Numbered from the stretch's first letter, positions 2,236-55,858 are shown. The stretch: DNA of 64,000 nt from an uncultured Prevotella sp. (GCA_944320285.1 CALUGX010000127.1:14941-78940); one strand, 5' to 3'. The notes: a model not told the origin generated them from the letters alone. Made by a program: numbers and translations.

Positions 2236-3153
2236 ATGATGAGAACAGATATGGAGACATTAAAACATGAATTTTATTCCACGTTTTTCACATTCGGCAA
2301 AATAAGTAAACATTTTTTGCCAACGTTTAATATTGTAATCTTCGCCTTCATGGTGATGGTAGCCACAAACGTGTCAGCACAGAAAATCAAAGGCAGTGAC
2401 ACGGTGTTACCGGTGTCGCAAGAAGGAGCTGAAATGTATATGAAAAACAATCCCCAAGCCCGCGTAACGGTGACAGGCGGAGGATCAGGTGTAGGTATTT
2501 CAGCACTGATGGACGGCACGACAGATATCGCTATGGCTTCGCGTTCGATTAAGTTCGGAGAAAAGATGAAATTAAGGAAAGCAGGAAAACTGCTACGTGA
2601 AGCCGTCGTTGCGTATGACGCCCTTGCTGTTATCGTAAACCCGCAAAACCCGATAACGCATCTTACACGTACACAACTCGAAGCGATATTCCGCGGCAAA
2701 GTGACGAACTGGAATCAAGTGACCGACCCCGTTACTGGAAATCGCGGCCCCGACCTGAAAATAATAGTCTACTCACGTGAGACCTCTTCAGGCACATACG
2801 AATTTTTCAAGACAAGTGTCCTCCATGAAAAGAACTATATGGCTGGCGTGCTATCAATGCCTGCCACGGGAGCGGTAATCCAGTCCGTCAGCCAGACACG
2901 CGGCGCAATAGGATACGTCGGCATGGCATACGTCAACAAATATGTAAAAGCCTTGAAGGTGTCTTACGACGGCCGCCACTTCGTCTATCCAAATATGGCC
3001 AACGGACGCAACCACACTTACCCTATAATCCGCGAACTTTACTATTATTATACGGCTGACAAAGCCAAGACCGTAGAACCGTTCATACGTTTCTTGCTGT
3101 CACCCGAAGGCCAGCAGATAGTAATGAGAAGCGGATACGTACCGGCTAAATAA
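2236..3153 (+). CDS. pstS: Phosphate ABC transporter substrate-binding protein PstS (start codon uncertain, possibly 2251)
   Basis: IKGSDTV, GGGSGVGI, IAMASR and SRETSSGTYEFF motifs of the PstS family. Confidence 0.95.
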   Translation: MMRTDMETLKHEFYSTFFTFGKISKHFLPTFNIVIFAFMVMVATNVSAQKIKGSDTVLPVSQEGAEMYMKNNPQARVTVTGGGSGVGISALMDGTTDIAMASRSIKFGEKMKLRKAGKLLREAVVAYDALAVIVNPQNPITHLTRTQLEAIFRGKVTNWNQVTDPVTGNRGPDLKIIVYSRETSSGTYEFFKTSVLHEKNYMAGVLSMPATGAVIQSVSQTRGAIGYVGMAYVNKYVKALKVSYDGRHFVYPNMANGRNHTYPIIRELYYYYTADKAKTVEPFIRFLLSPEGQQIVMRSGYVPAK

Positions 3154-3358: not shown

Positions 3359-4606
3359 TTACTCGTTGATAGCTGCCACTCCGGGAAGCACTTTGCCCTC
3401 AATGGCTTCGAGCAATGCGCCGCCGCCGGTAGAGATGTATGACACCTTATCGGCCATACCGAACTTGTTGATGCAAGCCACGGAATCACCACCTCCTATG
3501 AGCGAGAACGCACCCTCGGCCGTGGCGTCGGCTATGGCATCGGCTATGGCCTTTGAGCCGCCGATGAAGTTGTCAAACTCAAACACGCCGGCAGGACCGT
3601 TCCAAAGTATAGTCTTCGCACCCTTGATTGCTGCGGCAAAAGCCTTACGCGTTTCAGGACCGGCGTCCAAGCCTTCCCATCCGTCAGGAATATCGTTGGC
3701 GGGGCACACCTTGGTGTTGGCGTCGTTAGAGAAGTCGTCAGCTGCTATGCAGTCTGTACCGAGTACGAGGTTCACACCGTTCTCCTTGGCCTTCTTGATT
3801 ACGTCGAGAGCAACGTCGAGTTTGTCGTCCTCGCAGATTGACTTGCCAATCTTACCACCTTGTGCCTTGGCGAAGGTGTAAGTCATACCGCCGCAAAGTA
3901 TGAGGTTGTCCACCTTGCCGAGCAAGTTTTCGATGATGCCTATTTTGGTTGACACCTTTGAACCACCCATTATGGCCGTGAAGGGACGCTTGATGTTGCC
4001 CAGTACGTTGTCAACGGCTGTCACCTCTTTTTCCATGAGGTAGCCCAGCATCTTATGGTCTTTGTCGAAATATTCGTCTATGACGGCTGTAGAGGCGTGC
4101 TTGCGGTGAGCTGTGCCGAAAGCGTCCATAACGTAGCAGTCAGCGTAAGAGGCGAGCTTCTTGGCAAACTCCTTCTGGCGGACCTTCATTTCCTTTTTAG
4201 CTTCGTCGTATTTCGGATCTTCCTTGTCTATGCCTACGGGCTTGCCTTCCTCTTCGGGATAGAAGCGCAGGTTCTCAAGCAGCAGGGCTTCGCCTGGCTT
4301 AAGAGCGGCAACCTCGTTGTCGGCGTCGGCGCAATCAGGAGCGAACTTCACCTCCACGCCGAGATGCTCTGACACGTTCTTGACAATCTGGCTGAGCGAG
4401 AGTTTCGGGTTCACCTTACCTTTGGGCTTACCCATGTGGCTCATCATGATGACGCTACCGCCGTCAGCCAGCACTTTTTTCAGTGTGGGGAGGGCACCGC
4501 GTATGCGGGTGTCGTCAGTCACATTTCCGTTTTCGTCAAGAGGCACGTTGAAGTCAACGCGCACGATTGCCTTTTTACCGGCAAAGTTGAATTGGTCGAT
4601 TTTCAT
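3359..4606 (-). CDS. pgk: Phosphoglycerate kinase
   Basis: [22 protein letters not shown] and STGGGALLE motifs. Start moved to MKIDQF at 4606. Confidence 0.98.
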
Positions 4607-9753: not shown

Positions 9754-9827
9754 TCGGGGCGACAGGATTCGAACCTGCGACCACCTGGTCCCAAACCAGG
9801 CGCGCTACCGGGCTGCGCTACACCCCG
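9754..9827 (-). tRNA. tRNA-Pro (anticodon TGG)
   Basis: CGGGGTGTAGCGCAGCCCGGTAGCGCGCCTGGTTTGGGACCAGGTGGTCGCAGGTTCGAATCCTGTCGCCCCGA: cloverleaf with TTCGAA T-loop. CCA is not encoded. Confidence 0.97.
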
Positions 9828-9959: not shown

Positions 9960-11969
9960 TCACTGTCTGGTATTTTTCTTAGGATAATTCAACGTTTGCT
10001 GGTGACGCACCATTACCTCGGCACATTGCAACATTGAGAATGCGTAATTTTTCATATCACGGAATATCATATCGTCTTGCGCCGCCTTCACTTGTCTGCC
10101 ATTAGTAAAATAACGCAACTCTTGACGCGTGCCGGGGAAGTAGATATAAAGGCGTGACGCCCCCCTTACTCCGATAAGGTTGTCGCTCGTAAAATACATA
10201 TATGGCCTCTTTTCCTTCAGCAGATTGATACCGAAACCGTTTTGCACATATCCGTATCCAAGAAGTCCCAGCAACGTAGGCATCAAGTCAACCTGCCCAC
10301 CCACGCTGTCAACAATCCTAGGCTCTATGCCTTTTCCAAATATTATTAACGGAATATGATTGTATGACAATGGGCTTTCACACTCCGGAGTGCCTACCAA
10401 TTTACCGTGGTCTGCCATCAATACGAATATGGTATTATCCGCCCACGGCTTCTTTTTTACCTCCGTAATGAAATTGCGAATAGCCCAGTCAGCGTATTCA
10501 ACTATCTGCTCCTCTGTCTTGTGACTACGCGGATGAAAGTAATCAGGCACTACGTATGGCGGATGGTTGCTTATAGTTAACAATACACTGAAAAACGGCT
10601 GCCCTGATTTAGCGTGCCTGTCAAGCACAGGCAATGCGTACTGGAACAGGTAGTCATCAGACACGCCAAAGCCGTTAACAACCTTGTCGGCCGGATAGTT
10701 CTCCTGAGAATATATTTCATCGAAACCGTTGGTACGGAAAAAAGCGTTCATGTTATCATACTGTGACTCGTGCGTCATGAAGAACATATTACGGTAACCT
10801 TTTTCCTTCAATATCGTGGGCAGGCCCGAATATATGGGTATGACGGATCCTTTCATCGCATTACGCTTCATCACTGCCGGAAACGAATATAACGCAGAGT
10901 ACATTCCCTGGTTAGTGTGTATGCCAGAAGAATAGAAATTACTGAAACTGAGCGAATGCTTGTAAAGACTGTCAACGAAAGGTGTAAGGTTATGTTTGTT
11001 ACCGAACGACTGCATGAGGCTGGCAGACATCGATTCCATCAATATTATAACGACATTCTTACGTCCATGCGCCACACTTGAGTCGGCTTCAACCACCCGT
11101 GCCAACGGCGATATTCCGTCTATGCCGTGCCTTGACAGCAGTTTCTGTGCATTGGCTACTGCCACATCGGTAGGCATCAGTTTCAATTCTTGGTTTTCCT
11201 TACGGCTGTCGTCAAGTGCACTTTTCATCAAACTGAATACTGGTGCCACGCCAACCTGATTGAGGAAAGGATCCGTACAATAATACGCTTGGCTAATTCT
11301 TATGGGGTTGCGTCCAGTGCGCCCTCGGATACCGAAAAAGCACAGTCCGACAACTACCCCCCCCACAGCAAAAACAGCGTAAGTCTGCCTACGAACCCAT
11401 GCGCGGGCAGGAGACGGCACAGTCATCTTATAGAATAGTTTTGACAGTTTGCAAACTAAATAGCCAAACAGTGCTATCATGGCAATGCCCAGCAGCAAAG
11501 TAAGATAATAAGACGCCTCGCCAAACACCATCCCTGCCGTTGTGCCGGCATAATCAAACCAGTTGAAGATAGACGAATTTATAGGCTTGAAGAAGTAATT
11601 GAAATACGGAATATTTGCCGCAGAAATGATGAAACCCAGCGAATACAACACGATGAAATACACCGTAACCGAACGATAGAGCCATTTCGATACACATCCG
11701 AACAATCCGGCTACCCAGAACACTACCAACGGCAATGCCGTAATGTAACAGGCTACCACGTTGTCAAACCAAAGACCACGCACAAAAGCTACAGCATACA
11801 ATCCATAATCACCGGCTATGCCCTTGGGAAAACTGTAATCCGTTGCTACGAAAAGCACAACACGGAATAGTGAAAAAAACAAAAGTGCCATAACGTGCAC
11901 GCTGAGTAAGAAGCCCAATGAGGCTACGCCGTTCCTTACTGCTGCATTTGTATTCTTAAGACGATCCAT
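9960..11969 (-). CDS. LTA synthase family / sulfatase-like membrane protein
   Basis: N-terminal transmembrane segments, then ILMESMS, HTNQG, TISNHPPY, YADWAI and ADHG alkaline-phosphatase-superfamily motifs. Confidence 0.9.
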   Translation of the reverse strand: MDRLKNTNAAVRNGVASLGFLLSVHVMALLFFSLFRVVLFVATDYSFPKGIAGDYGLYAVAFVRGLWFDNVVACYITALPLVVFWVAGLFGCVSKWLYRSVTVYFIVLYSLGFIISAANIPYFNYFFKPINSSIFNWFDYAGTTAGMVFGEASYYLTLLLGIAMIALFGYLVCKLSKLFYKMTVPSPARAWVRRQTYAVFAVGGVVVGLCFFGIRGRTGRNPIRISQAYYCTDPFLNQVGVAPVFSLMKSALDDSRKENQELKLMPTDVAVANAQKLLSRHGIDGISPLARVVEADSSVAHGRKNVVIILMESMSASLMQSFGNKHNLTPFVDSLYKHSLSFSNFYSSGIHTNQGMYSALYSFPAVMKRNAMKGSVIPIYSGLPTILKEKGYRNMFFMTHESQYDNMNAFFRTNGFDEIYSQENYPADKVVNGFGVSDDYLFQYALPVLDRHAKSGQPFFSVLLTISNHPPYVVPDYFHPRSHKTEEQIVEYADWAIRNFITEVKKKPWADNTIFVLMADHGKLVGTPECESPLSYNHIPLIIFGKGIEPRIVDSVGGQVDLMPTLLGLLGYGYVQNGFGINLLKEKRPYMYFTSDNLIGVRGASRLYIYFPGTRQELRYFTNGRQVKAAQDDMIFRDMKNYAFSMLQCAEVMVRHQQTLNYPKKNTRQ

Positions 11970-30728: not shown

Positions 30729-31212
30729 TTATTTATTAGACAAAAACTCTTTCAACTTCTCTTTTACCACTTCCAAATCTTTGTCATGGTTACGCACAAG
30801 TTTCTTACTTGTTCCAAAATCCGAATAAGATATTATAACAAGGTTTATGCCGTGCTGTGGCAGTATATTCCGGCGGCGTTCGTCATAGTTTCTACGCTGT
30901 TCGCCACGCGAAACGCCACTTACGGTTGGCTTGTTATCAAACAATGGTACGGCTTCAGTGTGCTGACATTCGTGGTATTCAACAACAAGTTTCAATTCTT
31001 CATAATATGCGTCAACAGGGAGTTTTCGCCCTGTATCCCCTTTCAAGAAATCGAAACGGTGTTGGCGACTTGCCCTTAGTCCGAGAACTTCATCGCAAAG
31101 ATTTATGACATATTCCTCGTCACGACCTTTCCGACTGCTGCCAGATTTCAACATATCCAACACATTTTTACTAAGGCCCAACTCCTCCAATTTTTTTATT
31201 CAAGTCTGTCAT
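30729..31212 (-). CDS. Vsr/DUF559-like PD-(D/E)XK nuclease-fold protein, with a +1 slip in an A7 run just after the likely ATG (or a TTG start at 31190)
   Basis: LPVDAYYEELKLVVEYHECQH and YDERRR resemble the Vsr-like D.y.p...lvvE.dg..H / ..D..r. pattern. Confidence 0.6.
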
Positions 31213-31216
31213 AATA

Positions 31217-31471
31217 TCACATATTTAAATGGTTATACAAGTCGTTTATCACTTGATTTTCAGCTCCGTTGATTTTCTTACCTTTGGCGGCCTCATATCC
31301 GAGCTTCAGTTTTGCTTTTTCCACAGTGTTAAGATCCTCCGCGTCACTTACGCCAAGTCCTTTCAAGAACGACATTACTTTGGTAAGTGCATTATACCTG
31401 CATTGCGCAATGCCTTTACACTGGTATGTCAACTGCACCTTTTCATACAATTCATCTAAACTCATAATCAT
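31217..31471 (-). CDS. Hypothetical protein (82-84 aa)
   Basis: ATG after an A-rich leader, helical amphipathic sequence, 4-nt gap to the next ATG. Confidence 0.7.
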   Translation of the reverse strand: MIMSLDELYEKVQLTYQCKGIAQCRYNALTKVMSFLKGLGVSDAEDLNTVEKAKLKLGYEAAKGKKINGAENQVINDLYNHLNM

Positions 31472-31489
31472 GATTTTGTTTTTCGCCTC

Positions 31490-31760
31490 CCATTAGGCTC
31501 CGATAAGGTTGGCAAGGTTAGTAAACGGAAAGTGTGGAGCCTGGTGCTTGCAATCTCATGGAGGCTCTGGTAAAACCTTTGGACGTTACAAACAACAACC
31601 CCACACTTGTATATTCCCGGCGGCAAGTTGCCGCATGGGAATACCAAGCAGTGAGCGTCGTAGCCGCATCCCCGTCCAAATTGAAATTTACCAGATTTCC
31701 ATGAGGGAACGAAAGCATGACACTTTCACCGATATGTCTCGCCCTGTGCAAGGGCGTATG
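31490..31760 (-). ncRNA. Candidate structured leader RNA (nested stems, alternative pairings)
   Basis: Five nested complementary segments plus two 5' hairpins between a clear promoter and the first ORF. Coordinates given under findings. Confidence 0.55.
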
Positions 31761-31761
31761 G

Positions 31762-31795
31762 TGCAAATATACGGATATTTTACCATAGTGACAAA
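31762..31795 (-). promoter_or_regulatory. Bacteroidota sigma-A promoter (-33/-7) for the leader and downstream genes
   Basis: TTTG (31792-31795), 20-nt spacer, TATATTTGCA (31762-31771) on the minus strand. Confidence 0.7.
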
Positions 31796-31864
31796 TTGTA
31801 GGGTTGTTTTTTATATAAAGTTTTGCGTAGGTTTTATTTTTCATTTTGCCGCGCCTCGTAAAAC

Positions 31865-31965
31865 GCTGACTGTCAACTGGTTTGCAACAGGTATCCTTTT
31901 ACGTTGCAAAAGGTATCCTTTCGCGCTGCCGTTTGTATCCTTTCGCATTGCGATAAGTATCGGTC
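31865..31965. repeat. Degenerate 22-bp-period array
   Basis: GTATCC at 31891, 31913, 31935 and GTATCG at 31957. Confidence 0.7.
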
Positions 31966-32014
31966 TGGGGTTACGCCCGGCACCGGCGTATGCGCGCAAG
32001 GCCGCGACATGGCG

Positions 32015-32929
32015 TCATGAATTGCGCTTCAAGGCCTCCTCATAAATCTTGCGGACGCGCTCGCGAAGATACTGTGGCTTGATGACTTCAAGTGAACGGC
32101 TACGCGAAAGCAGCTCCATCACGAAGTCGTTGGTGATGCGCAGACGGAGGGAGATACGCAGTTCGTCGGGCGTGTCGGCAAGTATGCGTTGCGAATGGTG
32201 TATAGGGTCTGACTTGACAAATCGGCCGTCAAGGGCGTCATAGCGCAGTTCGATGTCCTCTACGGGCATAGCCGTGTCGTTCCACAAGCCGTAACAGTCG
32301 CGGAACAGTTCGGCCACATCAATATCGGTATGCCGCTTGAACGTGCACGTGTCGTCCACACGCAAGTTGCGTATGCGGTCGATGCCAAACGTCTTCATCA
32401 CGCTGCCGTCGTATGCCAATAGGTACCAGCGGCGGTTTGACTCCTTAAGGTAATGCGGCAACACGCTGAACGGCTTTTCGGTGCAGTCGTTACGGTAGTT
32501 AACGTAAGTGAACGACACCGGGTGCAGATCACGGATGGCTTTCACCAAGGGCATTATCCACTCGCTGTAAACGGGGCGGTGATGCTCGGCGAGGACGAAC
32601 GACGAGAGGTTGTTGTCGCTGCCGAGGGCGTTGAGAAGGTCGAAATTCATCATCAGCTCGGCTATCCGTTCGTCATATTCCATGTAATCCTCGCTAATGT
32701 AATATCCCTGCCGGGAACGGTCGAACCGTATTTCAACGCCGAAAAGGCTGTCGATGTCGGCTATGTCACGCTCAAGCGTGCGTGAGCTTATCGCCGCAGC
32801 GTCATACTATGTATCCATCTGCTCGTTGACAAACTTTAGCAGTTCGTCTTTGGGCACAAACTTTCCGCCGTGCCTCACTTTATTTAATATAAGGAGCAGC
32901 CTCCTTATTCCGTCTTTCTGTTTGCTCAT
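32015..32929 (-). pseudogene. HTH-WYL-WCX transcriptional regulator with an in-frame TAG at codon 41
   Basis: Frame from ATG 32929: MSKQKDGIRRLLLIL...QMDT*YDAAAISSRTLERDIADIDSLFGVEIRFDRSRQGYY (wHTH), then RRWYLLAYD...KTFGIDRIRNL (WYL). Only one stop, at 32807-32809. Confidence 0.85.
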
Positions 32930-55382: not shown

Positions 55383-55748
55383 TGCAGTGCCACGGTCTGT
55401 CGCCGGCGTCGCTAAAGGCGCGGGAGGAAAGTCCGGGCAGCACAGGACGCTCCACTTCTGAAAATGGAAGCTGTCGGTGACGGCAGGATTAGGCAGAAGA
55501 AAACAACCGCCTGCACTATGTTGCGGGTAAGGGTGAGAAGGTGGTGTAAGAGACCACCGGCCGTCAGGCGACTGGCGGGCCGTGCCGTCTGGAGGCTGCA
55601 AGTTCATGTAAACCGTCGTCCGAGGGTTGTCCGCCCGATTTTCACAACGACGGAGGGTAGAACGCTTGAGCCATGAAGTGATTTATGGCGTAGATAAATG
55701 ACAGGCACCGCTTCGACGGAACAGAACCCGGCTTACAGGGGCACTGCA
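55383..55748 (+). ncRNA. rnpB: RNase P RNA (type A)
   Basis: GAGGAAAGTCCGGGC near the 5' end, ACAGAACCCGGCTTA near the 3' end, P1 helix TGCAGTGCC/GGCACTGCA. TACTTTTG promoter at 55366. Confidence 0.97.
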
Positions 55749-55858
55749 TTCTTTTTAAAGACGCGGGGCAAGTATTGGATTTAATTCCACGTTTTCCACA
55801 CTCGGCAGAATAAGTAAAAACTAACCTTATCTCCTGCTTAATCAAAACCTTGAATTTC

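Follow-up and report, generated by a model that had tools for sequence, protein, structure and literature searches.

A conserved folded leader RNA with its own promoter ahead of accessory genes in gut Bacteroidales, and its candidate role as a bistable transcription switch

Attenuators assembled from a terminator, an antiterminator and an anti-antiterminator, and the expression platforms of riboswitches, are known from trp-type leaders, PyrR, T-box leaders and pbuE-type 'on' switches. The RNA described here, which lies in the window (the whole stretch of 64,000 nt from an uncultured Prevotella sp. that was analysed), has its closest working likeness among these attenuators and expression platforms, and no described family matches it. 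Like them, it is a leader that lies directly after a promoter, it has two to three mutually exclusive helices that share strands, and one of its states consists of a hairpin with a U-tract, both states being conserved by covariation. Unlike them, it has no match among known aptamer, T-box or leader-peptide families, its putative antiterminator (a 150-nt rod) is unusually long, a single tail is complementary to two separate boxes, and the leader is not tied to one pathway but precedes many unrelated accessory genes.

A second group of described RNAs comprises C4 of phages P1 and P7 and CI of P4. C4 RNA is processed from a leader to a stable RNA of about 77-79 nt in an RNase P-dependent manner. 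As in C4 and CI, boxes in the present leader have their complement at a target site farther along the same transcript, copies are found on mobile elements, the pairing is linked to premature termination (putatively, in the case of this leader), and box variants could give specificity. Unlike C4 and CI, the leader gives no match to the C4 covariance model, has no tRNA-like fold in its predicted structures, and has neither a prophage immunity region nor antirepressor or replication genes downstream, its cargo being surface proteins and nucleases. The first-pass annotation of this DNA had likened the leader to C4 and CI; that likeness holds for the complementarity between box and target, and fails for both the covariance model and the immunity-region context.

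Comparators for processive antitermination are JUMPstart/ops-RfaH, the UpxY leaders of Bacteroides capsule operons, put and EAR. With ops-RfaH, UpxY, put and EAR, our leader shares its being a conserved sequence before acquired surface and accessory operons that plausibly deals with termination. It differs from them in that there is no NusG paralogue among the Pfam calls beside the leader (loci L002-L012) and no match to an Rfam antitermination family, and also in its far greater size and bistable architecture.

A conserved leader with its own promoter

The promoter is of the Bacteroidota type and can be read directly from the sequence, with a -33 element TTTG at 31795-31792 and a -7 element TATATTTG (TAnnTTTG) at 31771-31764, spaced 20 nt apart on the minus strand, to which the coordinates of the leader, cargo and regulator features below refer. 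The -33 element is kept in Prevotella-clade homologues and the -7 element in homologues, TAnnTTTG standing at an equal distance before the first hairpin in almost every family member, divergent ones included; the full -33/-7 promoter that had been described earlier is thus conserved. We infer that transcription starts at about 31760-31757. From that start (~31760) to the ATG at 31471, the leader measures about 290 nt, which replaces the earlier figure of about 270 nt, and its placement between promoter and first ORF is identical in all homologues.

A 108-aa ORF (31844-31518, minus strand) overlaps the RNA and was rejected as coding. Indels shift its frame among homologues and three homologues contain stops, so the conservation is at the nucleotide level; no overlapping ORF of the leader was conserved in the homologue comparison. 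The helices contain many G-U pairs and the covariance model scores the sense strand at 233 bits vs 34 bits for the reverse strand, from which it follows that the sense strand is the promoter-bearing strand. The leader had no match in Rfam 15, either in a cmscan of the window at the gathering score or in one of positions 31100-32100 at E <= 10, which agrees with the earlier remark that no known family could be assigned, and no description of this RNA was found in the literature. The only Rfam matches in the window are an RNase P RNA (class A, 214 bits) at 55384-55751 and one tRNA at 9754-9827, both ordinary.

The ViennaRNA minimum-energy fold of the leader has an energy of -111 kcal/mol with z = -4.71, and none of 100 shuffles was as stable. 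It contains exactly the five nested stems that had been noticed on first reading, together with the 5' hairpin and the 7-bp hairpin close to the start codon, and the five stems covary in homologues; the leader is therefore, as had been proposed, a structured 5' leader driven by a conserved promoter. We call this structure fold A. It is a 150-nt rod (31705-31555) built from five nested helices (P-a to P-e) whose internal loops are conserved, its stems lying at 31705-698/31562-555, 31695-689/31572-566 and 31680-673/31585-578, with upper ones around 31645-31610 and 31634-31620, and it is dominant in the predicted ensemble. In an alignment of 34 distinct sequences to model R1, standard pairs made up 96.1% of the 1618 pair cells, as compared with 34-48% in controls in which the partner columns were slid, a comparison to be read with the knowledge that alignments fitted to a covariance model lean towards the structure of that model. 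Compensatory change was seen in 40 of the 50 pairs, and 0 of 500 shuffles reached the observed values. On this comparative evidence from sequence, the 150-nt rod is a real conserved structure.

Three smaller hairpins flank the rod. At the 5' end, P1 (CGCCC ... GGGCG, 31756-31740) shows strong covariation: almost every lineage has its own sequence here, yet the hairpin is always formed and retains G-U pairs, which points to an RNA rather than a DNA palindrome. This hairpin, too, had been proposed from the single sequence. P2 follows, a local hairpin of GGUGAAAG and CUUUCGUU at 31730-31708 that contains a segment which we call the 5' box (GAAAGUGU, 31727-31720). The 5' box is near-invariant among members retrieved with standard-type patterns, and one locus (L060) has GAAAGUGA; the 3' strand of P2 varies between lineages, yet it always pairs with part of the 5' box. 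On the other side of the rod, P-t pairs AGGCUCC (31542-31536) with GGAGCCU (31501-31495) and holds the conserved tail in its loop (31542-31495). P-t corresponds to the 7-bp hairpin that had been marked before the start codon; RNAalifold gives it as the consensus for the 3' region, two of its six pairs show compensatory change, and its predicted pairing probability is about 0.75.

Taken together, the leader is a real conserved folded RNA of about 290 nt that has its own promoter and stands before many accessory genes in gut Bacteroidales.

An alternative hairpin and three covarying boxes

When the 3' half of the leader is folded alone, the predicted consensus is another hairpin, hairpin T, whose 5' arm (31608-31586) and 3' arm (31553-31530) form two helices. 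In T1, the inner segment AAGUGUGGGG (31608-31599), which is paired inside the rod in fold A, pairs with CUCCACACUU (31539-31530); in T2, the internal-loop strand UGUUUGUAA (31594-31586) pairs with the linker UUGCAAGCA (31553-31545). In the resulting fold T, 93.1% of cells were paired (29 distinct sequences, model R2), as compared with 34-55% when columns were slid. In the upper helix, T2, seven of eight pairs have changed in a compensatory way, and in three divergent lineages the register of T2 is shifted by two columns with the pairing kept. The lower helix T1 covaries in two sequences, L064 and the second copy on contig L052; elsewhere T1 and the helix P0 described below are mostly invariant, partly since the retrieval patterns fixed them, and their covariation rests on those two sequences.

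Of the two downstream pairings that the first-pass annotation had drawn, the one between AAGTGTGGGG (31608-31599) and CTCCACACTT (31539-31530) is real and conserved, whereas that between TGCTTG (31650-31645) and CAAGCA (31550-31545) is complementary in the window and not in homologues; pairing of the CAAGCA linker is conserved instead with the internal-loop strand UGUUUGUAA at 31594-31586.

A U-rich tract, UUUCCGUUUAC (31531-31521), lies directly 3' of hairpin T, after CUCCACAC. In most lineages this tract is UUUCUUUUU, and in divergent members it is UUUCUUUUU(U/G), a classical terminator tract; in the clade of this window it is weak. A hairpin followed by a U-rich tract is the signature of an intrinsic terminator, and we regard hairpin T as a putative one. 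In 16 homologues, the best T1-constrained fold was 0.6-17 kcal/mol less stable than the minimum-energy fold.

T2 cannot coexist with P-a, P-b and P-c, because only 0-2 nt link it to the rod of about 23 bp. A reading of the pairing between internal loop and linker as a pseudoknot was rejected on the same geometry. From this geometry, we infer that fold T is an alternative to fold A, and the conservation of their pairings shows both folds to be under selection. P-t overlaps the CUCC of the tail, so P-t excludes hairpin T. The earlier claim of mutually exclusive pairings is upheld here, since the tail pairing overlaps an arm of the 7-bp hairpin and folds A and T both covary.

A third use of the tail concerns the 5' box. 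The tail ACACUUUC (31535-31528) is the exact complement of the 5' box GAAAGUGU (31727-31720), and the helix between them is P0; the 5' box GAAAGUGU and the inner segment AAGUGUGGGG are both complementary to the tail CUCCACACUUUC. In the two members with the tail ACGCUUUC, the 5' box is exactly GAAAGCGU or GAAGGCGU. Written out for all three boxes, the second L052 copy has the 5' box GAAGGCGU, the inner segment GCGUGGGG and the tail CCCACGCUUUC, and L064 has GAAAGCGU, GCGUGGGG and CCCACGCUUUC, as against GAAAGUGU, GUGUGGGG and CCACACUUUC in the other members. One tail position has changed jointly with both of its proposed partners in these two sequences. The second L052 copy was found by the covariance model alone, and no search pattern imposed the change in its 5' box, whereas L064 was retrieved by a pattern that fixed the inner segment and the tail, so that its independent evidence is its 5' box only. 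Extension of P0 into the 3' strand of P2 and the linker gave mixed signals. We also considered GGAAA of the 5' strand as a partner for UUUCC of the tail, and dropped this pairing because it did not covary consistently in the wider set.

Viral contig L052 carries two leader copies (2833-3015 and 11624-11804) of different box types (GCGU and GUGU), one before a lipoprotein gene and the other before a gene for a REase-ARP nuclease. One could picture the three boxes as a specificity code, with leaders or fragments of them acting in trans on cassettes of the same box type, an idea that we consider quite unlikely. Were it true, mobile elements and prophages of Bacteroidales would cross-regulate each other's surface and defence genes by RNA-RNA recognition, and the GUGU and GCGU types on one element would be orthogonal channels, like P1/P7 heteroimmunity. 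The window's own genome holds a single leader copy by BLAST, hence no trans target there.

Related to this is the possibility that the rod or part of it is processed, in the manner of C4 and CI, to a stable small RNA whose boxes GAAAGUGU and AAGUGUGGGG pair, in cis or in trans, with the tail of their own or of other cassettes and thereby bring about termination, an immunity-like control whose specificity would lie in the box sequences. Such a reading would be served by two separate segments being complementary to one downstream target with all three covarying, by the GUGU and GCGU types on one viral contig, which resemble orthogonal specificities, by the many copies on viral or mobile contigs that bear integrases, and by two RNA libraries (X6 and X7) with leader-core contigs only. 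We nevertheless hold it to be unlikely: alternative pairing in cis accounts by itself for the covariation, strain variation accounts for the contig ends (see below), and the points named at the outset weigh in the same direction, namely the absent match to the Rfam C4 model, the predicted structures with no tRNA-like fold, and a context with neither immunity region nor antirepressor gene.

A more modest alternative is that the leader is a static structure, which would stabilise the 5' end of the mRNA or, by way of P-t and the A-rich start region, adjust how strongly the first gene is translated, with no switch; the alternative fold would then be a folding intermediate or post-transcriptional. 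The 5'-terminal hairpin right at the inferred start, the dominance of fold A in the predicted ensemble, and the covariation of P-t just before the A-rich translation start region would all be expected of such a leader. It is hard to explain, if fold T has no function, why covariation should keep a fold that is incompatible with fold A, and the coordinated change of three boxes is similarly hard to explain; a conserved element of 290 nt is also far beyond the needs of stabilisation. We therefore think a purely static leader rather improbable.

Carriers, transcripts and cargo

The leader is known in Prevotella, in Marseilla, and in viral or mobile-element contigs. BLAST of the RNA against the genomes of 60 relatives recovered no copy other than that of the window, which makes the element sporadic, and no match was found in plasmid and phage collections. 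Contigs that encode relatives of the 84-aa protein described below carry leader copies 80-91% identical to this one, and a pattern scan of species genomes retrieved Prevotella MAGs and the isolate Marseilla massiliensis An824. A tail-motif scan of metagenome contigs yielded 18 loci, some of them divergent members that score 64-94 bits. Scanning viral contigs identified 14 loci, 13 with full-length matches (43-101 bits, 37-48% GC) and one contig with two copies, and many of the viral loci are near tyrosine integrases.

Integrative elements also touch the leader itself. Two different family members (L033:12294-12397 and L062:11165-11290) have lost the promoter, P1, P2 and the initial bases of the rod to the same element end, with an identical junction at GGA|AATCTGG, and in L062 a tyrosine integrase adjoins. 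Another insertion, in L047 near 3700-3720, lies close to that point, beside an uncharacterised ORF of 543 aa. The conserved 5' strand of the leader, with GGAAAUCUGG as the candidate, may thus be an attachment site for integrative elements, which appear to insert at the leader as others do at tRNA genes.

It might be asked whether the leader is chiefly a DNA-level element, an attachment site or recombination hot spot whose RNA structure is secondary. The shared junction in L033 and L062, the tyrosine integrase in L062 and the L047 insertion near the same point are what such an element would leave behind. However, the G-U pairs and compensatory changes that preserve its helices are confined to a single strand, and the promoter, together with the constant spacing to the start codon, points to a leader that is transcribed. 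Conserved RNA genes are common targets of integrases, and the two roles are compatible. As the chief explanation, a DNA-level role is highly improbable.

Leader sequence occurs in libraries that are labelled as metatranscriptomes. For run X2, contig depth is 14.4 over the leader vs 4.3 for the downstream genes, a drop that is no more than suggestive of termination, as these depths may sum strains or DNA carry-over, and in libraries X6 and X7 only a 183-nt leader-core contig is present. The RNA-seq data are assembled contigs, which do not define RNA ends. We considered whether contig ends at 31544/31726 and 31539/31721 could be those of a processed 183-nt species and rejected this, since they coincide with variable segments at which strains differ and are probably strain branch points rather than RNA ends.

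In the window, the first gene behind the leader (31471-31217, minus strand) encodes an 84-aa protein with no assigned family that is rare (9 clusters). It is 33-38% identical to an 88-aa protein encoded together with GIY-YIG_2 nucleases at sister loci (L009:3152-3418). The 84-aa and 88-aa homologues may be a common partner of different nucleases, for example a specificity or antitoxin-like subunit. The second gene (31212-30729, minus strand) encodes a Vsr-like nuclease, of a family with 1095 members, and is frameshifted by an A7 tract at 31191-31197; contigs of other strains in runs X1 and X2 have A6 instead and an intact 160-aa frame, and relatives in databases have the frame intact at 157-163 aa, starting with MTDLNKK. 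The AF2 model of the nuclease has a pLDDT of 84.5, and its best fold matches, which are weak, are AbaSI (4par) and Vsr (1cw0, 1vsr), with E = 2.5e-3 to 2e-2. Pfam, NCBIfam and PADLOC gave no match for the 84-aa and 153-aa proteins, and a PDB sequence search with the 160-aa form of the nuclease (P0001) likewise gave none. In most of the 1095 nuclease relatives (P0016-P0120), which are 225-255 aa in length, the conserved nuclease core is fused to unrelated N-terminal domains; one of these domains is a separate 86-aa ORF in L008 and L046. Three Sel1-repeat genes follow downstream of the nuclease gene.

Upstream of the leader lies a gene for a WYL/WCX regulator (32929-32015, minus strand; Pfam WYL and WCX). 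It has an amber codon, TAG, at 32809-32807 in the N-terminal HTH part; in a contig of another strain from run X2, G in place of A at 32809 turns the codon into CAG (Gln) and leaves the WYL protein intact at 304 aa, as in sister loci. The regulator and the nuclease are therefore both broken in this genome, in which the leader is intact, although an assembly error is possible. Between the WYL gene and the leader promoter, at about 31880-31925, are tandem units of 22 bp (AAAGGATACCTTTTGCAACGT-like), of which one strain has an extra unit; they belong to a dispersed repeat family, many unrelated contigs matching only 30-40 bases of them.

Across the family, the cargo varies at a fixed distance from leader to start codon, with the promoter kept. 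Apart from the 84-aa protein with the Vsr-like nuclease and the 88-aa homologue with the GIY-YIG_2 nuclease, it includes a UDG-superfamily protein, an uncharacterised protein of 180 aa and the REase-ARP nuclease; most often, in viral-contig and divergent loci, it consists of DUF4988/BspA-type LRR lipoproteins, other lipoproteins and Sel1 proteins. The WYL regulator was considered as an obligatory partner of the leader and rejected, for it is upstream in most Prevotella loci and absent from several loci. With cargo so varied and WYL absent from some loci, the RNA is not specific to toxic genes or to WYL. The idea, implied by the comparison with C4 and CI in the first-pass annotation, that the leader gates toxic genes does not hold in general, given that besides nuclease genes it also heads genes for BspA-type LRR/DUF4988 lipoproteins, Sel1 proteins and a UDG-family protein.

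Swapped cassettes in multi-gene accessory operons headed by one leader are also what one would look for if the RNA recruited RNA polymerase or a NusG-like factor for read-through in acquired operons, with fold T as the first terminator to be overcome, and the sequence-invariant segments suggest contact with a protein or the polymerase. Against processive antitermination of this kind, no NusG/KOW family occurs among the genes with Pfam calls in loci L002-L012, EAR and the other Rfam antitermination families gave no match, and the two exclusive folds and the conserved three-way box system would be left unexplained. We judge it improbable.

The proposed switch and its meaning

The explanation that we favour, and hold to be somewhat more probable than all others together, is that the locus is a portable promoter followed by a cis-acting bistable terminator/antiterminator leader, which would set transcription into the accessory genes behind it. 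In this scheme, P0, formed by the 5' box and the tail, would close fold A into one closed rod, and fold A with P0 would be the antiterminator. Fold T would be the intrinsic terminator, taking the 3' strand of the rod (AAGUGUGGGG and UGUUUGUAA) to pair with the linker and the tail. P2, which hides the 5' box, would act as the anti-antiterminator. The layout would therefore be one of successive exclusions, P2 against P0, P0 with fold A against T, and T against P-t.

Since fold A forms first in transcription and is energetically favoured, a factor is needed to reach fold T. The choice between the folds would be set by such a factor, and the best candidate for its site would be GAAAUCUGG-N-AAUUUCAA, a sequence-invariant segment of the 5' strand, together with the conserved internal loops. 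The conservation of the loops and of helix P-b appears to exceed the needs of a simple attenuator, which counts against the attenuator reading.

If the favoured reading is true, this would be one large uncatalogued RNA switch, carrying its own promoter, for many horizontally acquired genes in gut and rumen Bacteroidales. The genes under its control would include those for BspA-type surface proteins, Sel1 proteins, nucleases and DNA-glycosylase-like defence candidates. A cultured carrier of the family, Marseilla massiliensis An824, makes experiments feasible. The leader would then be a new class of large structured RNA in a phylum with poorly charted RNA regulation, and would offer a handle on the switching of newly acquired or mobile-element genes.
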